A DNA stretch of 44,088 nt from a virus (Duplodnaviria > Heunggongvirae > Uroviricota > Caudoviricetes). Location: IMG/VR virus record IMGVR_UViG_2541047912_000004, positions 1 through 44,088 of that record, one strand, 5' to 3'. The notes below the pieces were generated by a model that was not told the DNA's origin, searched no databases, and worked only from the letters and a program-made list of their open reading frames with translations. Below, piece by piece: positions 1-42,758 of the stretch. The number at the start of each line of letters is the position of its first letter. The first letter of the stretch is position 1. The translations under genes and the position numbers were made by a program.

Positions 1-1131
1 CTAAGCCGCGTGCTGCGATTCAGGGTTTACAGGCTCTCCGTGGGCTAACACTGCCAGCCCGGCAGCTTTAATATTACGTGCCGCGTTAATGTCGCGATCA
101 TGGTCTGCGCCGCATTCAGGGCAGTGCCATTTACGAACATTAAGAGGCATTTTTTGCATGGTGAAACCGCAGCAACTACAGCATTTTGAGGACGGTAAAT
201 ACTGGTCAATGGCGACCACTGACCGCCCGGCCCATTTGCCTTTGTACTGGAGCTGGCGAACAAGTTCGCTCCAGCCTGCGTCAGCTATTGCTTTAGACAG
301 CTTCGGGTTGCGGATCATGTTTTTCACCTTGAGGGATTCGACGCAAACAACTTGGTTTTCGTTAATCAGTTTGCGGGACAACTTGTGCAGATTGTCCATC
401 CGGCAATCGGCGATTTTCGCGTGGAGTCGGGCGACCTTTAAGCGGGCTTTAATACGGTTTCTTGAGCCTTTTTGCTTCCTGCTTAAACGTCGCTGTAGCA
501 GCGTTAATCGCTTCGCATATTTAGCGGTGTGGCGGGGATTGTCGGTTTTGAATCCGGTATCGGTGACGAATAAATCTTTTAAGCCCACATCAATGCCGAC
601 CGTTTTAGCGGTAACAGGCATTGATACAGGTTCAAACTCACACAGGCAGGAAACAAAGTACCTGCCAGCGCTATCTCTGGAAATGGTAACGGTTGACGGC
701 GCAGATGGTAATTCTCGACTCCAGCGAACATCCAGCGGCGACTTGCTCTTTGCTATATACAACTCGCCGTCACGGTGTTTAAACGCGCTGGCAGTGAACT
801 CAGCCACCTGTTTGTGCCGTTTGCTTTTGAAAGCCGGATATGCAACTCGTCCAGCAAAGAAGTTAGCAAAGGCGGCTTGTTGGTGGCGCAACGACTGCTG
901 GAGGGGAACGCAGGAAACATCATTCAGCCATATGTATTCAGGCTCTTTTTTGAGCGCCGTAAGGCGAGCGTTGGCCTGTAGATAACCGATCTTTTCTTTT
1001 CGCTCGTAGTACGCATCGGTACGCCAACGAAGGATGGAATTGTAGACGAAGCGCACACAGCCAAACGTCTGAGCTAAAAGCTCAGCCTGCTCAGTTGTCG
1101 GGTAAAACCGGTATTTATATGCGCGTTTCAT
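1..1131 (-). CDS. tnpB: IS200/IS605-family TnpB (OrfB) RuvC-like nuclease; solo copy, no tnpA in window
   Basis: 376-aa ORF with the typical OrfB N-terminus (YKYRFYPT..EQ), RuvC-like motifs (GIDVGL, DxDINAARNI) and a C-terminal CxxC..CxxC zinc finger. ATG at 1129..1131, stop at window position 1..3. Lies outside the prophage. Confidence 0.85.
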   Translation of the reverse strand: MKRAYKYRFYPTTEQAELLAQTFGCVRFVYNSILRWRTDAYYERKEKIGYLQANARLTALKKEPEYIWLNDVSCVPLQQSLRHQQAAFANFFAGRVAYPAFKSKRHKQVAEFTASAFKHRDGELYIAKSKSPLDVRWSRELPSAPSTVTISRDSAGRYFVSCLCEFEPVSMPVTAKTVGIDVGLKDLFVTDTGFKTDNPRHTAKYAKRLTLLQRRLSRKQKGSRNRIKARLKVARLHAKIADCRMDNLHKLSRKLINENQVVCVESLKVKNMIRNPKLSKAIADAGWSELVRQLQYKGKWAGRSVVAIDQYLPSSKCCSCCGFTMQKMPLNVRKWHCPECGADHDRDINAARNIKAAGLAVLAHGEPVNPESQHAA

Positions 1132-1806: not shown

Positions 1807-1821
1807 TTAGTATAAAAAAGT
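1807..1821. other. attR: Prophage attachment junction, lambda core copy 1 (bacterial B' arm on the left, phage P arm on the right)
   Basis: TTAGTATAAAAAAGT matches the reverse complement of the lambda 15-bp core GCTTTTTTATACTAA at 14/15. The left flank cgtttcgctcaag is the complement of the attB arm ACTTGAGCGAAACG. The right flank (about 1822..1975) resembles the lambda P arm (gtgacctgtaacaga is the complement of TCTGTTACAGGTCAC). Confidence 0.8.
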
Positions 1822-2343
1822 TGAATGTGAAACGGTAAAAACCATTAATATCAACGCATTATAATTGATTCAGTCTAAAAAATAGACTGCATAATGCTAC
1901 AAAACACAACATATCCAGTCACTATGAATCAACCACTTAGATAGTATTAGTGACCTGTAACAGAGCATTAGCGCAAGGTGATTTTTTGTCTTCTTGCGCT
2001 AATTTTTTGTCAACATACTGGGTTATCTGAATTTACAACCATGCTCAGTATCTCGATAAGCGCAGGGAGATGATGCAGTGGTGGGCGGACTGGATTGATG
2101 AAAAGGTGGAGTAATCCATCTTAACTATCGAATGGCACAAAGCCTCGCAATCCAGTGCAAAGCTTTGTGTGTCTCATCAACTACCGCAAGTATCGATCGA
2201 TTGAGACTTGGATGATAGAATAAATTCGTAGCACTGTTTTTTAAAGTATCATCTCGCTCATGGTTACGTGATAGAAAAAGGACAAAATAATCTTAAATTT
2301 AAAAGCATATAAATCATACAAATAAAATTGTGGTGGGTGCGTA

Positions 2344-3342
2344 ATGTCTGATATTCGACAAAATAGAATAGAGTTAAATGAAGTGCATATAGCTCGCTCC
2401 ATGGCTATATTTCTAGTTGTTTTACTTCATTCTTCAGGTGCTTTTTTTATGCAGTTTGGAGATCATTGGTGGATTGTTAATTTATACAGTTCTTTTTCAA
2501 GGCAGTGTATAGGTCTTTTTTTTCTTATCACTGGATACCTTTTTTATGAAAAAAACATAAACCCAACAGCACACCTAAAAAAAGGAGTGTCGAGATTGAT
2601 AATACCATTCATATTTTGGTGGGTGGTATATTATATCTACAATACAGAGATTAACAACAAATCATATAATTCTATATTTCAACCAAGTGAGGTACACCTT
2701 TGGTTTATGTATGCATATATTTGTATATATATGTTTTTACCAATAATTTGCAACTCATTAAAACACATACCAACATATTACATTTTAATTATTGTAAGCA
2801 TGCTTTTTTACTCAAATTCCATTGTTCCTGTAGTTGATAAAACGATAATGAAGGTAACATGGTTTGATGTAAAACTAGTGTCTGAAAATGGGATATATAT
2901 CCTTATTGGGGCAATAATAAGGAGATATAACGATAAAATAAAAAAATGCAATGCAGTGATACCATTGGTGATTATTGTTATGTCGTGCCTGTTAACATCA
3001 ATGGCGTCTAGTTGGTGGTCTGAAATAACAGGCAGGCCTGAGCAGTTTTTCTTTAAAAATACATCTCCACTTGTATTAATATGTGTTATTTCTTCATTTA
3101 CATTATGCATGTCATACTCAAAAATAATTAGCAAAAGATTAATGAATTTATTTACATCAATATCAAATGTTTCATTTGGTATATACTTCGTCCATTTCTT
3201 TTTTGTTCGAGAAATTAGACTCGGGTATAATCAAGAAAACGCATATTTCATGATACCATTGCTAACAATCATTTATTTTTTAATGTCATATTGCATATCA
3301 ATAATTCTAAGCAAGATCCCTTTGCTTAGAAAAGTAATATAA
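2344..3342 (+). CDS. Integral-membrane acyltransferase family 3 protein (O-antigen acetylase-like, candidate lysogenic conversion gene)
   Basis: 332-aa highly hydrophobic multi-pass protein. The N-terminal region carries an R..A..LVVLLH motif typical of acyltransferase-3 enzymes. Strongly AT-rich. Convergent with the tailspike, with adjacent stop codons. Placement after the tailspike and next to att parallels oac in phage Sf6. Confidence 0.75.
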   Translation: MSDIRQNRIELNEVHIARSMAIFLVVLLHSSGAFFMQFGDHWWIVNLYSSFSRQCIGLFFLITGYLFYEKNINPTAHLKKGVSRLIIPFIFWWVVYYIYNTEINNKSYNSIFQPSEVHLWFMYAYICIYMFLPIICNSLKHIPTYYILIIVSMLFYSNSIVPVVDKTIMKVTWFDVKLVSENGIYILIGAIIRRYNDKIKKCNAVIPLVIIVMSCLLTSMASSWWSEITGRPEQFFFKNTSPLVLICVISSFTLCMSYSKIISKRLMNLFTSISNVSFGIYFVHFFFVREIRLGYNQENAYFMIPLLTIIYFLMSYCISIILSKIPLLRKVI

Positions 3343-5589
3343 TTATGGATTATTAACCTTCCATCTTTTATCATAGTAATGCAAATATCCCTGAGACGTT
3401 AGTGTCATATGGACAATCGCTTGGGATATTTGCGCGTTCTGAAAATTAACTCTAATAAATACTTGAGTGCCAATTGTTATTTTTGATACAGATATCCCGT
3501 CAAGAGTCTTGTCTCCTTGTATTTTATTAACCCAAACACCTGACGAAGACAAGGTTGCCTGATCCTTTCCGCTTATACTAAATATAATTTTACCTCCTGT
3601 TGCCAGTGAGGTGTTTACTCCATTTTGAGATATTGGAATTATTGTAATTTCACCAGCAATGAAAACACCATTTTTGTATTTAGATTCCTCACCTTGTTCA
3701 CAAATTAAAATATCAATACATCTACCCCATGGTACTAGGATTGTTGCATTTTCAGTTTTTACTTGTGGATATACAGCTGAAACACCTGCAGATTCGAAAT
3801 TTTTTGCTGATAAAACAACTCCGTCAGATCCATTTCTAAATCCCATTCCTGTATGATCACCGTATGTCCTTCCATGAGAGATGAATCCTCTTACATACTC
3901 TTCGGATACTACGCTACCAGTGGTTTCCTTCTGAAAGATAAATGTTTCACCAAAAGAAAAACCACGACATTGGTATTGGCTCTGATAATTTTCTGAGTTC
4001 TTAAAAAAGGAAATGCCTTTATATGCTGTTACATAGCCAGATCTAAATTGAACGGAAACAGGGGTTGTTTGTTCATCTGGAGGTAACTCCACAAAATGTG
4101 TAACATTTTGGCTGTTTGATTCCTGTAACCATACAGAAACACCATCTATAATCATGGTTGAAAATCTACTGTTTATTTCTAACTCAGAAAAATCAAGAAC
4201 ATGATCACCTGTAACACCCTCAACTCCAAACCCATCAATACTTAAAGACCTGAACTGATAGAATTTATGCGGTAACTCACAACCATCAGCTGCAATATTC
4301 ATTGCGCTAGTGTACATTAATGGGTAAGGACTTATAATTGGTTCATATGTTTCTCTATCTATTGCAGCCCCCCAAAGATACCCAACATTACAATGTCTTG
4401 CCCAGTTGGAAGAGAATGTAGTAGATGTGCCAGCCAAACCGAAACCATAGATACAATCATATGCTTGGTTGTTTGTAACATTACTGACAAAGCATGATAA
4501 GGGAAGTGCAAATTTATAATGTAGAAATATGTTATTTTTAATATCATATTCACTACCCCCGCCAAAGGTTTGTGTTTGACCAGAAATGACCAATGGGCTA
4601 CCTGAATATTCATCGTCAGCGTTGCGAAAACACATATTCTTTACTTTAAGATTGTGCCCCCAACTTCCCATAACAAAACCACCACTTCCTGATGTATAAA
4701 CAATACTTTTTTGTGGATTAATCCCATATAGATTTAGACTAATCCCTTCCCATCTAAACTGGCTAATGTCAATTTGAGTGTTACCAATATATATAGGCTG
4801 GTCTATGAAAACAGGAAGTTTAGTTAGATAAGCTTTATTAAGTGCTAATCCATCATTTGTTACACCTGTTAAATCAACGCCACCCATGCTTGGCGCTCTA
4901 GGATACCCTGTGGCCTGAATAGTACTCCAGTCAATATATGGAGCATCCATCCACGCTCCAAACATACGTGGTGTTACGTACCCCTTACCTTGAAGATCAC
5001 GTTTCCAGCGTTTACCACCCGCAGTGACAATGACCATGCCGTTATCATCTGCAGAAGTAGAATCTGTGAAATCGGCCACAAACAGACCACCACCAGTATC
5101 ACCTGATACTGTCGGCTTCATGCCTGTAGTGTGGAAGTCGACGAAAATCTTTTGCTGATCTCGCTCAGGCTCAATTGTCCTTAACATTGCTATATCAGGG
5201 CATGTCCCGATGTATTTAAGACCGTCTTCCCCTGATAGAGATACTTTAAGCTGATCAGGATCATACTTCAGCACATTTGGGAATTTGAACTGCTGTGCAC
5301 CATATGCATCATAAACAGCCATAGAATGGCCTTGCACAGTTACGAACTTGGCAATCTGTCCGTTATATACCGGATATCCAGCATCGTTAATGATGATTGG
5401 TTGCGAAACAGGAACGTGAGAACCGTCTTCATTCTCCACATAAACCTGAATCTGGTTTTCAGGATTTACCGGGTCAGTGTCAATTTTACCGATATAAATT
5501 TTGCCATTGGCTACGGCTTTAAAAGAACGAGCCATAGTGAAGAGTTGCGAAGGCATGCTTACCACAACATTTGCGGTGATATCTGACAT
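3343..5589 (-). CDS. Tailspike protein (P22 gp9-like N-terminal head-binding domain, divergent C-terminal receptor-binding domain)
   Basis: The N-terminus [43 protein letters not shown] closely matches the P22 tailspike head-binding domain. Start set at the internal ATG 5587..5589 (GGAG upstream); the ORF track extends 16 codons further. Confidence 0.85.
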
Positions 5590-5677: not shown

Positions 5678-5971
5678 ATGCCATTCCACCCAACTGGTGA
5701 GGCATCAAGGATGTACAGCAAATACGACGAGGCGCAGTTTCACTTGAGACTTCCGCATGAACTCCACGCGAAAATTAAGCAGCGTGCGAAGATGAATAAC
5801 AGGTCGCTGAACTCAGAGATAATTGCAGCGATTGAAGAATCATTGGCTAAACAAAGCTCTGCATCAGTTTACATTGACGATGCAGAGCGTATGGCAGAAC
5901 AACAATCTGATATAGTTAAGAAAATTGTCTTTGATACGCTCAAAGAGCTATATAAAAAAGACAGCAGCTAA
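5678..5971 (+). CDS. mnt: Mnt-like ribbon-helix-helix repressor
   Basis: Similar to P22 Mnt (..NNRSLNSEI.., AERMAEQQSDIVKKIVFDTLKELYKK versus P22 AERLADEQSELVKKMVFDTLKDLYKK). An alternative start at ATG 5711 gives 86 aa, closer to P22 Mnt length. Confidence 0.7.
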   Translation: MPFHPTGEASRMYSKYDEAQFHLRLPHELHAKIKQRAKMNNRSLNSEIIAAIEESLAKQSSASVYIDDAERMAEQQSDIVKKIVFDTLKELYKKDSS

Positions 5972-6060
5972 CCATCAGTTACGGAGGATTTATGCAAAGA
6001 GATATGATGAATATTGCGTTCTACATATTTGGTTTTTGCACGTTCCTGGTGTTTGAAAAG

Positions 6061-32308: not shown

Positions 32309-32710
32309 AACCAAAGAGTAGTTGGCTTTGGGATTGGATGAATGAGCAGGCTGATGCTCGACCAATGTATAAACAGCGCTCATGGCAAGCAGTAACCAAT
32401 CTGCGCCTCAAGACAGCGTCACTGGTAGTGCGGGCGCTCTAACCAGTAAGCCGGAGTTCAGCACCGGCCATCCAATCGCCAAAGTCAATTCCATAGGCGT
32501 TATGCAGCCGCCACCATATTCAAGAAAGCTGCACAAGAGGTAGGAGGATTTATGTGAATACTTACATTCAATTGAGAGGTTAATTAAATAGAACTGATCG
32601 AGCAGAGTCCATAAAGGCTCATAAATGCTCTTCCATCCCCGTCTAATTGGCGGGGAAGGAAACCACTTTGTAATAAAAAAAATTCCAAAGTTGTTTCATC
32701 GGAGGTCAAC

Positions 32711-33010
32711 ATGACAGTAGTCATTACATATCTGGCTGACGATAACGCCAGAAATCGCCGCAGAGCACGCAGACAGGCTCAACGTGAACAGGCAATGCAA
32801 GAGCAGCGACTGGCGCGAAAAATTGCGCTAAAGCTCTCTGGTTGCGTCAGAGCAGATAAAGCAGCATCACTCGGAAGCCTTTGCTGCAAGAAGGCAGATG
32901 AAGTCGAGCGTAAACAGAACCGTATTTACTACCGCAAGCCACGCAGTGAAATGGGTGTGACTTGTGTTGGTCGCCAGAAAATGAAATTAGGCAGCAAACC
33001 ACTTATTTGA
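32711..33010 (+). CDS. N-like transcription antiterminator (arginine-rich motif)
   Basis: 99-aa basic protein with an N-terminal arginine-rich motif (DNARNRRRARRQAQREQA). First gene downstream of PL and nutL. Confidence 0.65.
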   Translation: MTVVITYLADDNARNRRRARRQAQREQAMQEQRLARKIALKLSGCVRADKAASLGSLCCKKADEVERKQNRIYYRKPRSEMGVTCVGRQKMKLGSKPLI

Positions 33011-33018
33011 GGTGAGAT

Positions 33019-33489
33019 ATGACAAAATCATGGAGCGTACCTTTTCCTGAATCAGAAACTGAACATGATGGAATGCCTGTTTTCTGGAGATTCCAAGCGA
33101 CAGTTGAAGAAGATGGAATCAAAATATTCGCACTTCAATATATAGCTTTTCATCAGACAGAGCATTATGCATGGTTGGTTCCTGCGCATTGGATTGTTAA
33201 TTTTAAACCAGCACCAAATCAGTGGTTACAGGAATGGAAACAAAGGAGAAATAGATATGCAATTAAGAAAGTAGCAAAAAATGCAGAAAGATCTTTTGCA
33301 TTCCCAACGAAGAAACTTGCCATTGAGAGTTTATTGCGCCGGAAGAAATACCATTTAATGAGAATCAAACAAGATTTGGCTGTTGTATCAACTCTTGTTG
33401 ATGGGATGAAGAATATTGATACATCAACACCAGATATTGAATATAACTTTGGGCACAACCAAGAAACAGAAAATTGGGTATTTTATTAG
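33019..33489 (+). CDS. Hypothetical protein, first gene of the AT-rich island downstream of N
   Basis: 156-aa ORF with no recognisable motifs; markedly AT-rich codon usage. Followed by hairpins including a terminator-like GCCCTC-CAGTGT-GAGGGC-GATTTTTTA (about 33598..33625). Confidence 0.5.
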   Translation: MTKSWSVPFPESETEHDGMPVFWRFQATVEEDGIKIFALQYIAFHQTEHYAWLVPAHWIVNFKPAPNQWLQEWKQRRNRYAIKKVAKNAERSFAFPTKKLAIESLLRRKKYHLMRIKQDLAVVSTLVDGMKNIDTSTPDIEYNFGHNQETENWVFY

Positions 33490-33639
33490 TACGAGTAAGC
33501 ACTGTGTATTCATTCCAACGAGTGAATACACGGAGCAATGTCGCTCGTAACTAAACAGGAGCCGACTTGTTCTGATTATTGGAAATCTTCTTTGCCCTCC
33601 AGTGTGAGGGCGATTTTTTATCTATGAGGATATGAACAG

Positions 33640-34008
33640 ATGTCAAACATCAAAAAATATATCATTGATTACGACTGGAAAGCATCAATAGAAATTGAAA
33701 TCGACCATGACGTAATGACAGAGGAAAAACTTCACCAGATTAATAATTTCTGGTCAGACTCTGAATGCCGACTCAATAAACACGGCTCTGTATTAAATGC
33801 TGTATTAATCATGCTGGCGCAACATGCTCTGCTTATAGCAATTTCAAAAGACCTAAATGCATATGGTGTTGTTTGTGAGTTCGACTGGAATGATGGAAAT
33901 GGTCAGGAAGGATGGCCTCCAATGGATGGTAGCGAAGGAATAAGAATTACCGATATCGATACATCAGGAATATTTGATCCAGATGATATGACTATCAAAG
34001 CCGCCTGA
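33640..34008 (+). CDS. Hypothetical acidic protein (122 aa), second gene of the AT-rich island
   Basis: By hand count about 22 Asp/Glu versus 9 Lys/Arg; AT-rich; no recognisable catalytic motif. Confidence 0.5.
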   Translation: MSNIKKYIIDYDWKASIEIEIDHDVMTEEKLHQINNFWSDSECRLNKHGSVLNAVLIMLAQHALLIAISKDLNAYGVVCEFDWNDGNGQEGWPPMDGSEGIRITDIDTSGIFDPDDMTIKAA

Positions 34009-34101
34009 GCGCGGCTTTACCGCATACCAATAATGCTTCACGAGAGGTGTTTATTCATGAGCGTAAACGCTGATTAATGAACGCAGTTGATAGGATATAA
34101 A

Positions 34102-34614
34102 ATGGCATTTATAAAGATTCTTGAATTAATTTCCCTAAGTGAGATTAATAATGTTGTCAAATATAACCCTATTTCTGGTGAGTTCACATGGCTAAAATCT
34201 TATGGAGCAAGGAAGATAGGTGGAACTGCCGGAACAATAACAACAAGCGGCTACTTAAGGATTTTCATTAACGGAAGACACTATGCTGCACATAGACTTG
34301 CATGGATTATCACTTTCGGTGTTGAGCCTGAAGGTATTATCGACCATATAAATGGCATAAAGACAGATAACAGAATTTGCAATCTGAGGCTTGCAACTTA
34401 CTCACAGAATTCAATGAATAGTAAAATAAACACCCTCAACAAATCAGGTTGCAAAGGAGTCACATGGAAGAAGGAAAGTAGAAAGTGGGCTGCCTATGGG
34501 AAATTAAACGGGAAGAAAAAACATCTAGGGTACTTTAATGAATTAGAAGATGCCAAAAAAGCTTACTGCGACTTTGCCAGAAAGCATCACGGCGAATTCT
34601 ACAGGAGCAAATAA
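34102..34614 (+). CDS. HNH endonuclease with a C-terminal AP2-type DNA-binding domain (homing-endonuclease-like)
   Basis: HNH motif region (AHRLAWIITFGVEPEGIIDHINGIKTDNRICNLRLATYSQNSMN) and an AP2-like segment (GVTWKKESRKWAAYGKLNGKKKHLGYFNELEDAKKAYCDFARKHHG). Start set at the ATG 34102 (AGGA Shine-Dalgarno); the track ORF begins at a TTG at 34087. Confidence 0.75.
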   Translation: MAFIKILELISLSEINNVVKYNPISGEFTWLKSYGARKIGGTAGTITTSGYLRIFINGRHYAAHRLAWIITFGVEPEGIIDHINGIKTDNRICNLRLATYSQNSMNSKINTLNKSGCKGVTWKKESRKWAAYGKLNGKKKHLGYFNELEDAKKAYCDFARKHHGEFYRSK

Positions 34615-41403: not shown

Positions 41404-41622
41404 ATGTACTTGACACTTCAGGAGTGGAACGCTCGCCAGCGACGCCCAAGAAGCCTTGAAACAGTTCGTCGATGGGTACGCGAGTGCAGGATATTCCCTC
41501 CTCCGGTTAAGGATGGAAGAGAGTATCTGTTCCACGAATCAGCGGTAAAGGTTGACTTAAATCGACCAGTAACAGGTAGCCTTTTGAAGAGGATCAGAAA
41601 TGGGAAGAAGGCGAAGTCATGA
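41404..41622 (+). CDS. xis: Excisionase Xis (lambda-type)
   Basis: The 72-aa product MYLTLQEWNARQRRPRSLETVRRWVRECRIFPPPVKDGREYLFHESAVKVDLNRP.. is essentially lambda Xis. Start at the internal ATG 41404; the track ORF is over-extended. Confidence 0.9.
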   Translation: MYLTLQEWNARQRRPRSLETVRRWVRECRIFPPPVKDGREYLFHESAVKVDLNRPVTGSLLKRIRNGKKAKS

Positions 41623-42670
41623 GCGCCGGGATTTACCCCCTAACCTTTATATAAGAAACAATGGATATTACTGCTACAGGGACCCAAGGACGGGTAAAGA
41701 GTTTGGATTAGGCCGAGACAGGAGGATAGCAATCACTGAAGCTATACAGGCCAACATGGAGTTATTTTCAGGACACAAGCACAAGCCTCTGACAGCGAGA
41801 ATCAACAGTGATAATTCTGTTACGTTACATTCATGGCTTGATCGCTACGAAAAAATCCTGGCCAGCAGAGGAATCAAGCAGAAGACACTCATAAATTACA
41901 TGAGCAAAATTAAAGCAATAAGGAGGGGTCTGCCTGATGCTCCACTTGAAGACATCACCACAAAAGAAATTGCGGCAATGCTCAATGGATACATAGACGA
42001 GGGCAAGGCGGCGTCAGCCAAGTTAATCAGATCAACACTGAGCGATGCATTCCGAGAGGCAATAGCTGAAGGCCATATAACAACAAACCCTGTCGCTGCC
42101 ACTCGCGCAGCAAAATCAGAGGTAAGGAGATCAAGACTTACGGCTGACGAATACCTGAAAATTTATCAAGCAGCAGAATCATCACCATGTTGGCTCAGAC
42201 TTGCAATGGAACTGGCTGTTGTTACCGGGCAGCGAGTTGGTGATTTATGCGAAATGAAGTGGTCTGATATCGTAGATGGATATCTTTATGTCGAGCAAAG
42301 CAAAACAGGCGTAAAAATTGCCATCCCAACAGCATTGCATGTTGATGCTCTCGGGATATCAATGAAGGAAACACTTGATAAATGCAAAGAGATTCTTGGT
42401 GGAAAAACCATAATTGCATCTACTCGTCGCGAACCGCTTTCATCCGGTACAGTATCAAGGTATTTTATGCGCGCACGAAAAGCATCAGGTCTTTCCTTCG
42501 AAGGGGATCCGCCTACCTTTCACGAGTTGCGCAGTTTGTCTGCAAGACTCTATGAGAAGCAGATAAGCGATAAGTTTGCTCAACATCTTCTCGGGCATAA
42601 GTCGGACACCATGGCATCACAGTATCGTGATGACAGAGGCAGGGAGTGGGACAAAATTGAAATCAAATAA
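41600..42670 (+). CDS. int: Integrase Int (lambda-type tyrosine recombinase)
   Basis: The 356-aa sequence (MGRRRSHERRDLPPNLYIRNNGYYCYRDPRTGKEFGLGRDRRIAITEAIQAN.., catalytic region HELRSLSARLY..GHKSDTMASQYRDD) is essentially lambda Int. Overlaps the end of xis as in lambda. Confidence 0.95.
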   Translation: MGRRRSHERRDLPPNLYIRNNGYYCYRDPRTGKEFGLGRDRRIAITEAIQANMELFSGHKHKPLTARINSDNSVTLHSWLDRYEKILASRGIKQKTLINYMSKIKAIRRGLPDAPLEDITTKEIAAMLNGYIDEGKAASAKLIRSTLSDAFREAIAEGHITTNPVAATRAAKSEVRRSRLTADEYLKIYQAAESSPCWLRLAMELAVVTGQRVGDLCEMKWSDIVDGYLYVEQSKTGVKIAIPTALHVDALGISMKETLDKCKEILGGKTIIASTRREPLSSGTVSRYFMRARKASGLSFEGDPPTFHELRSLSARLYEKQISDKFAQHLLGHKSDTMASQYRDDRGREWDKIEIK

Positions 42671-42743: not shown

Positions 42744-42758
42744 TTAGTATAAAAAAGC
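42744..42758. other. attL: Prophage attachment junction, lambda core copy 2 (phage P' arm on the left, bacterial B arm on the right)
   Basis: TTAGTATAAAAAAGC is the exact reverse complement of the lambda core GCTTTTTTATACTAA. The left flank (42680..42743) resembles the lambda P' arm; the right flank aggcttcaacgg is the complement of the attB arm CCGTTGAAGCCT. Confidence 0.85.

Follow-up and report, generated by a model that had tools for sequence, protein, structure and literature searches.

An AT3 acyltransferase gene abutting a chimeric tailspike gene in a P22-like prophage of Escherichia coli: a probable O-antigen recognition and modification cassette

Introduction

Why does a prophage keep a tailspike gene and the gene of a membrane acyltransferase tail to tail, with their stop codons touching? 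Could such a pair form a single cassette, in which one product recognizes a polysaccharide of the host surface and the other alters it? The question is raised by the IMG/VR virus record IMGVR_UViG_2541047912_000004, positions 1 to 44,088, the whole stretch of 44,088 nucleotides that was analysed and that we refer to as the window. It holds a P22-like (Lederbergvirus-type) prophage of ~41 kb that is integrated at att-lambda of E. coli. A preliminary description had proposed that the convergent pair is a horizontally acquired cassette, whose tailspike would recognize or cleave a specific O-antigen and whose acyltransferase would modify that O-antigen in the lysogen.

We consider it very probable that the locus is a lysogenic-conversion pair of the type found in phages Sf6 and phiV10: a tailspike directed at an O-antigen, probably of O32 type, together with an acyltransferase-3 (AT3) protein whose O-acetylation of that antigen would leave the same phage or its relatives less able to adsorb. 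This reading as a recognition and modification cassette is supported by comparison, not by biochemistry. The arrangement is well known from Sf6 and phiV10, and the window holds a rare new allele of it, not a new kind of system.

Results

In Sf6, a P22-like podovirus of Shigella, the tailspike gene (gene 14, an endorhamnosidase) converges with oac (gene 15), which encodes an AT3-only protein of ~333 aa and lies between the tailspike gene and the integrase and attachment site, as in the window. The two tailspikes share the head-binding domain (PDB entry 7sg7 matches residues 1-116 with an expectation value, E, of 3e-62). Sf6 Oac acetylates the O-antigen and so blocks the phage's own tailspike (PMC9558356). 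The likeness has its limits: Sf6 Oac is ~20% identical to the window acyltransferase in an alignment and is missed by tblastn at E 1e-3, the receptor-binding domain of Sf6 is unrelated in sequence to that of the window, and Sf6 has an argW integrase of the IntS type, whereas the window prophage has a lambda-type Int and only a 3' fossil of IntS. The same geometry recurs in phiV10, a Uetakevirus that infects E. coli O157, where an oac gene with a low content of guanine plus cytosine (GC, 0.31) converges with the tail fibre or tailspike gene and is annotated for O-antigen acetylation and superinfection immunity. phiV10 differs in its genus, in the N-terminal adaptor of its tailspike and in its receptor (O157). 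In both phages, acetylation of the O-antigen blocks adsorption of the very phage that encodes the enzyme (PMC9558356).

The position of the cassette is equally familiar. It sits between the att core with its integrase fossil and the head-binding domain of the tailspike, with the acyltransferase on the strand opposite to the late genes. This slot between tailspike and att is where P22-like phages keep O-antigen modification genes; it houses the gtr loci of P22, epsilon34 and BTP1 (gtrABC; GtrC of BTP1 is OafB, an AT3-SGNH protein), and the window has a single AT3-only gene without SGNH domain in place of their three-gene glucosylation operon. Other att-lambda P22-like prophages are identical to the window up to ~2176-2219 and divergent beyond. 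One of these siblings, ECNB21-M121, has a gtrA-gtrB-gtrC-like operon in the slot, and HB37 has a small open reading frame and a different tailspike of 883 aa. In a relative of the P0012 type, the slot is taken by an AT3-SGNH acyltransferase. On the right, the N-terminal region of the tailspike serves as the anchor, which begins at nt 4931 or nt 5245, depending on the relative.

The tailspike itself bears out the P22-like N-terminus and the chimeric build that had been read from the sequence at the outset. PF09008 (Head_binding) matches residues 1-113 over its full profile (1-113 of 113, E 7e-66), and PDB sequence matches (7sg7, 8tvr, 1lkt) extend the similarity to the Sf6 and P22 tailspikes to residue ~116-137. 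The DNA of this domain is ~90-94% identical to that of many P22-like phages (IME10, Sf101, HK620, CUS-3). Residues 114-220 are shared to ~97-100% with the prophages of strains 573 and mip270_04 and of the P0012 type, and residues 118-213 match CBA120 TSP2 and WceF in the PDB. Among 50,697 phage records, no near-identical DNA was found for the tailspike beyond the head-binding domain, and megablast and blastn matches of the entire cassette were limited to that domain and to the arm of the phage attachment site (attP). The receptor-binding part (PF27114 by precomputed Pfam annotation) reappears with ~50% protein identity on Kagunavirus, T7-like and large lytic phages, each time behind a different N-terminal adaptor. 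A P22-type N-terminus is thus joined to a receptor-binding part otherwise found with other adaptors; such chimerism is the normal state of P22-like tailspikes.

What does the receptor-binding part look like? An AlphaFold model of the monomer (residues 114-748; mean predicted local distance difference test score 81.5) forms a right-handed parallel beta-helix followed by a C-terminal beta-sandwich; a beta-helix had been anticipated in the preliminary description. Foldseek aligns it at E ~1e-13 with the tailspikes CBA120 TSP2, Acinetobacter AM24 and Klebsiella K2-2, and the modelled fold resembles tailspike depolymerases and glycoside hydrolases or lyases. The family alignment shows conserved acidic residues, among them D435, E457 and D466 (full-length numbering). 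The phages named in the text of a study that relates 14 tailspike subtypes to serogroups (PMC10408124) are not among our ten full-length matches. As a separate observation, the differences between the window tailspike and two near-identical copies, introduced below, cluster at codons 102-108 (window ~5266-5286), at the end of the head-binding domain, in what looks like a small recombination patch.

The acyltransferase is an intact member of its family. Its 332 residues hold PF01757 (Acyl_transf_3) and no fused SGNH domain, with a match over profile positions 3-325 of 326 (E 5e-34, 118 bits against a cutoff of 31). AT3 motifs have been defined by residues that are invariant in 31 characterised carbohydrate acetyltransferases, among them, in OafA numbering, the catalytic histidine H25 of the R/K-x10-H motif in transmembrane helix 1 and the glycine G202 in transmembrane helix 6 (PMC7448272). 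The window protein has R18-x10-H29, both columns of which are invariant in an alignment with phiV10 Oac, Sf6 Oac and an AT3-SGNH protein. Residues 59-64 read FFLITG, with threonine in place of the serine of FFxISG, the motif of transmembrane helix 2, and F59, G64 and G189 are likewise invariant columns. Members of the family have about 10 transmembrane helices; in the window protein, a crude Kyte-Doolittle scan gives six 19-mers of strong hydrophobicity that do not overlap, or eight overlapping peaks, with weaker ones likely. Two independent assemblies, Logan ERR10376201 (L002) and IMG/VR UViG_3300045988 (L016), also contain the gene, and the window differs from these copies by 12 synonymous and 1 non-synonymous nucleotide changes, a pattern unlike that of a pseudogene. 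Given the open reading frame, the full-length domain, the retained catalytic histidine and this excess of synonymous changes, the idea that the gene might be a pseudogene is not borne out.

The enzyme is rare. Its family comprises eight clusters among 5.8 billion proteins and two IMG/VR loci; the cluster of the window protein has 72 member sequences, without truncation. A scan of 185,579 species-representative genomes with a profile of the family alignment returned no relative, and hence no donor of the AT-rich DNA. A PDB sequence search with the acyltransferase gave no match, nor did NCBIfam and PADLOC for either gene product. The gene also has five homopolymer tracts (2442-2448, 2516-2523, 2549-2555, 2577-2583 and 2940-2946; one T8, one T7 and three A7). 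Slipped-strand phase variation was considered; tract lengths are constant in the three copies, and a single GATC lies upstream.

Does this tailspike family travel with acyltransferases more generally? In all five lysogenic contexts in which we found the receptor-binding family, a convergent AT3 acyltransferase adjoins it. The partners are of several kinds: the AT3-only protein of 332 aa in the window; another AT3-only protein of 332 aa, 55% identical to it, in the type of strain 573 and L017; an AT3-SGNH protein of 611 aa in the P0012 type; an AT3 protein with gtrABC in L009; and an unrelated AT3 protein of 349 aa in mip270_04. On the lytic side, the one context inspected (P0014) has the receptor-binding domain and no acyltransferase; other lytic phage types carry the domain family as well. 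In P0002, an acyltransferase 55% identical to that of the window is directly followed by gtrA-gtrB-gtrC and then by a convergent tailspike of the same receptor-binding family.

Which O-antigen could be the target? DNA-level relatives of the receptor-binding region occur in 2 of 5426 complete E. coli genomes, none of which has the window allele, and both belong to the 9 genomes with O32 wzx-wzy. The chance of both being O32 is about 2e-6 if the genomes are independent and about 0.002 if they are clonally related. As judged from these genomes, the tailspike would most likely be directed at an O32-type or related O-antigen. O32 is the O-antigen of Shigella boydii 14 and resembles O83. Nothing usable on the O32 structure or on phage NRG857CP3 was found in the literature. 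A side observation concerns the O32 strains NZ_CP102853.1 (L001, L019) and NZ_CM132654.1 (L020), which are alike in genome size and whose argW P22-like prophages have tailspikes that are identical over the first ~216 residues, with different C-terminal parts and with unrelated AT3 acyltransferases (332 aa and 349 aa), which suggests turnover of the cassette within one serogroup.

The nearest relatives are the argW prophages of the O32 hosts 573 and mip270_04, both with the same convergent geometry as the window and both, unlike the window, with an intact IntS, integration at argW and a spacer between the genes. The mip270_04 tailspike is ~100% identical to that of the window over residues 1-216 and ~45-50% identical in its C-terminal part; its acyltransferase is of an unrelated AT3 lineage. 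Comparison with the 573 prophage is more informative. The two prophages are ~100% identical at 2226-2400 and again from 4390 onward through mnt and gp16, including complete identity from 2226 through the first ~17 acyltransferase codons, and hence over the upstream region. Between these flanks lies a block of 40-70% nucleotide identity, which takes in acyltransferase codons ~20-332 and tailspike codons ~400-748, with its breakpoints inside both genes. The tailspike proteins share ~100% identity over residues 1-400 and 44-74% beyond. One diverged block across both genes with identical DNA on either side fits the movement of matched specificities together; we propose this as a hypothesis, drawn from one such prophage pair. 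Together with the position in the canonical serotype-conversion slot, this block exchange supports the suggested horizontal acquisition of the cassette.

The junction between the genes is unusual among these relatives. The acyltransferase stop codon at 3340-3342 directly abuts the tailspike stop codon at 3343-3345, leaving a spacer of 0 bp. L002 and L016 have the same abutting stops, so this is not an assembly artefact. In relatives, 12-33 bp separate the stop codons, usually with a GC-rich hairpin: 32 bp in strain 573 (ATCTCCCCCAT...ATGGGGGAGAT), 30 bp in mip270_04, 32 bp in the P0012 type and 33 bp in Sf6, where a terminator is annotated; the 12 bp of phiV10 are without hairpin. Both window proteins end at positions equivalent to those of their 573 counterparts, which indicates that the spacer is precisely absent from the window allele.

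Is there, then, no room for a terminator, as had been stated? Between the stop codons this is literally true; a candidate hairpin is, however, embedded in the coding sequence of the acyltransferase. On the minus strand, this stem-loop begins 12 nt beyond the tailspike stop, with UUAUUGAUAU after it; on the plus strand, no U-tract follows. It is the sole perfect stem of at least 10 bp in 2344-5589, and any such stem arises in 1% of shuffled sequences. In L016 and L002, variation affects its loop or a single base of the stem. On sequence grounds, the hairpin is a plausible candidate for an embedded terminator at which late transcription through the tailspike gene would end. In the other direction, transcription of the acyltransferase probably continues, as antisense, into the tailspike gene.

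Finally, the base composition agrees with the earlier observation that both the acyltransferase and the C-terminal part of the tailspike are AT-rich. The acyltransferase has a GC content of 0.296 (0.28 at third codon positions, GC3), ~5.7 standard deviations below the prophage mean, and tailspike residues 221-748 have 0.36-0.38 (GC3 of the C-terminal part, 0.27), against 0.479 for the rest of the prophage (1-kb windows: mean 0.480, standard deviation 0.032, minimum 0.371). Neither the head-binding domain (0.425) nor residues 114-220 (0.464) are AT-rich; the drop begins near nt 4930, at residue ~221, and not at the domain junction. As a rule, gtr genes and oac-like genes such as phiV10 oac are low in GC, so that the trait alone is no proof of recent transfer.

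Table 1. Features of the cassette and of the prophage ends, in window coordinates
Feature	Position	Strand	Evidence or remark
Lambda-type att core, ybhB-side prophage end	1807..1821	-	pattern GCTTTTTTATACTAA, 1 mismatch
Terminator-like hairpin with T-run, attP arm	1960..2010	+	inverted repeat I1; outside cassette
3' fossil of IntS-type integrase	2030..2114	+	IYNHAQYLDKRREMMQWWADWIDEKVE and stop; left anchor of variable slot
Hairpin just past fossil stop	2136..2169	+	inverted repeat I3, 14-nt arms, 86% complementary
Acyltransferase upstream region, presumed promoter site	2226..2343	+	Shine-Dalgarno-like GGTGGG 6-11 nt before ATG
AT3-only membrane acyltransferase, 332 aa, putative O-antigen O-acetyltransferase	2344..3342	+	PF01757
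Diverged ~2-kb block relative to E. coli 573 argW prophage	2400..4390		sliding 60-nt identity profile, protein comparisons
Perfect 10-bp stem-loop in acyltransferase 3' end	3305..3331	-	terminator scan, RNA fold, inverted repeat I5
Abutting stops TAA and TTA of the convergent genes	3340..3345		sequence ...GTAATATAA directly followed by TTATGGATT...
Tailspike, 748 aa	3343..5589	-	P22-type N-terminus and beta-helix receptor-binding part
AT-rich parallel beta-helix and C-terminal beta-sandwich (predicted receptor binding, depolymerase), residues ~221-748	3343..4929	-	
Linker and intermediate domain, residues 114-220	4930..5250	-	segment identities, PDB matches
Head-binding domain, residues 1-113, right slot anchor	5251..5589	-	PF09008
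Partner att core, ybhC-side prophage end	42744-42758		exact match to GCTTTTTTATACTAA

Discussion

How would such a cassette work? The tailspike would join the virion through its conserved P22-type head-binding domain, and its beta-helix receptor-binding part would bind, and probably cleave, the O-antigen of the host. By analogy with Sf6 and phiV10, the acyltransferase, an AT3-only protein of the inner membrane, would be expressed in the lysogen, presumably from its own upstream region, and would take acetyl groups from acetyl-CoA in the cytoplasm and transfer them to the O-antigen on the periplasmic face of the membrane. The modified O-antigen of the lysogen would then be a poor substrate for the same or related phages, as it is in the case of Sf6 Oac and phiV10 Oac, and superinfecting phages would be excluded. 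The cassette may be swapped by homologous recombination between the int 3' end, or its fossil, and the N-terminal domains of the tailspike, sometimes with breakpoints inside both genes. In the window allele the usual intergenic bidirectional terminator would have been lost, which would leave the stop codons abutting and the tailspike transcript to terminate probably at the embedded hairpin.

Several observations weigh against this reading. If the two O32 genomes share a clonal origin, as they may, the association would rest on one event, and the O32 lead is drawn from the genomes of relatives, not from the window's own host. The closest characterised relative of the acyltransferase, phiV10 Oac, is 27% identical over 95% of its length (E 1e-20), an identity at which acceptor sugar and position are not predictable. 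The embedded hairpin is AT-rich and followed by a poor U-tract, and in one of the other copies a change in its stem is uncompensated. A scan of the upstream region for consensus sigma-70 promoters yielded nothing convincing (12 sites against 18.9 in shuffles). The RXXR motif of characterised AT3 enzymes (R73/R75-76 in Oac, R69/R72 in OafA), which is essential in Sf6 Oac, OafA and OafB (PMC7448272), is K80-G-V-S-R84 (K-x3-R) in the window protein and degenerate throughout its small subfamily (K-G-V-R-K, K-G-F-I-N and K-G-F-H-K in other members). Could the acyltransferase be a decaying or silent passenger, impaired in catalysis or untranscribed and exposed to antisense late transcription, so that the cassette works only as a tailspike gene? 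The replaced motif, in which both arginines are essential in OafA and Oac, the lack of an outstanding promoter and the lack of a terminator between the acyltransferase and a strongly transcribed late operon would all agree with this. We nevertheless find it most improbable in view of the full-length Pfam match with its invariant histidine, phenylalanine and glycines, the synonymous excess among three independent copies and the untruncated protein cluster; RXXR itself is highly, not absolutely, conserved among characterised AT3 enzymes (PMC7448272).

The cassette might also be real and act on a different glycan, with tailspike and acyltransferase both directed at a capsule (K antigen), colanic acid or enterobacterial common antigen. 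AT3 proteins acylate many surface glycans (PMC9558356). The beta-helix model also matches capsule depolymerases of Klebsiella K2 and Acinetobacter, and there is a precedent in the P22-like phage CUS-3, whose K1 endosialidase tailspike shares the head-binding domain. CUS-3 also carries the capsule O-acetyltransferase NeuO; enzymes of the NeuO type are not known to be AT3 proteins, which counts against the parallel. Homologues of the window acyltransferase adjoin gtrABC, the typical machinery of O-antigen glucosylation, a sibling prophage has a gtr-like operon in the same slot, and the DNA-level relatives are found in O32 genomes only, which links them to an O-antigen cluster. A target other than the O-antigen therefore appears highly unlikely to us. 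Somewhat less remote, and still unlikely, is that acetylation takes place and serves a purpose other than self-exclusion: it could create or preserve the epitope of the phage's own tailspike, or protect mainly against other phages or host immunity, with the linkage of the genes being positional. That one receptor-binding family is paired with AT3-only proteins of two lineages, with AT3-SGNH and with AT3 plus gtr would suit a positional link, and O-antigen modification is known to affect both immunity and competing phages, as for GtrC of BTP1 (PMC9558356). Against it stand the joint divergence of the acyltransferase body and the C-terminal half of the tailspike between identical flanks, and the fact that modification by Sf6 and phiV10 blocks the phage's own adsorption.

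If the locus is a lysogenic-conversion pair of the Sf6/phiV10 type, could its two halves be matched to each other? A more speculative proposal, which we regard as possible and on balance doubtful, is that the C-terminal half of the tailspike and the acyltransferase form a matched recognition-immunity pair that is exchanged as a single recombination unit of ~2 kb with breakpoints in both genes. If true, one pair of crossovers would switch both the O-antigen variant that is attacked and the modification that protects, much as in toxin-immunity and colicin-immunity modules. At least five acyltransferase solutions, each with its own tailspike variant, would then diversify the O32-type O-antigen, and the linkage of the two genes would be tighter still in the window allele, where the intergenic terminator is missing.

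That a temperate phage carries one enzyme that attacks the O-antigen and another that disguises it is a textbook principle, and the locus leaves current understanding unchanged. What it adds is a rare, uncharacterised AT3 subfamily, a receptor-binding family apparently tied to the little-studied O32, and a natural experiment in the form of two prophages with identical flanks that differ in a 2-kb block over both genes. The zero spacer with its embedded hairpin and the co-swapped block are minor peculiarities of the allele. The pair of window and 573 alleles would make the co-evolution of tailspike specificity and O-antigen modification testable, which is relevant to serotype evolution, to the prediction of host range and to the design of phage therapy.

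Other features of the prophage

The window is a segment of the E. coli chromosome with the order InsQ/TnpB gene, ybhB, prophage, ybhC. The att pattern GCTTTTTTATACTAA has two matches in the window against 0.07 expected by chance, and the two cores delimit the ~41-kb prophage. A gene for a lambda-type Int of 356 aa lies at the far prophage end (41600-42670). Beside the tailspike gene lie P22-type mnt and gp16; for gp20, gp7 and the later virion genes, the identification comes from L002, a near-identical copy of the prophage. Scans of the entire window gave no match to Rfam and no tRNA gene.

The left arm of the prophage resembles that of lambdoid phages: over 1803-2176 it shares ~88% identity with the arm left of attP in phages 434 and lambda, which includes an annotated terminator, and the hairpin with the T-run corresponds to the one annotated there in phage 434. 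In lambda-type prophages, this arm includes a remnant of an IntS-type (argW) integrase gene, its ~27 final codons. In the window, the translated fossil agrees with the IntS C-terminus of E. coli 573, and its DNA has 93-96% identity with the 3' ends of the intact int genes in the argW prophages L004 and L020. It is also present in phage 434 (L015, ~1725-1815), in L013 (8030-8113) and in L014 (8016-8099), and RefSeq labels it a partial hypothetical protein in other att-lambda prophages. The fossil has the appearance of a common recombination anchor, by which serotype-conversion cassettes can pass between phages that differ in their integrases. A stronger reading, in which it would prove an origin of the cassette from an argW phage, was rejected, because phage 434 has the same fossil in its attP arm, as do other att-lambda prophages. 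The hairpin just past the fossil stop is kept in E. coli 573, 3' of the intact intS, and is probably a former int terminator.

Some minor observations concern the remainder of the window. The InsQ/TnpB gene (IS200/IS605-type; 1-1131, minus strand) is an unbroken open reading frame of 376 aa; its ortholog in HB37 and ECNB21-M121 is frameshifted according to RefSeq. L002 carries an extra ~560 bp with a 161-aa open reading frame without Pfam match between mnt and gp16 (L002 3618-4563), which is absent from the window (5678-6060), and the immI region of the window has mnt only, without arc or ant. A second, milder AT-rich island lies at ~32500-34600 in the early/immunity region, with a 1-kb GC content of 0.375-0.41 and short open reading frames on the plus strand (32711-33010, 33019-33489, 33640-34008 and 34087-34614). 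This island at ~32.5-34.5 kb may be another moron or accessory cluster.

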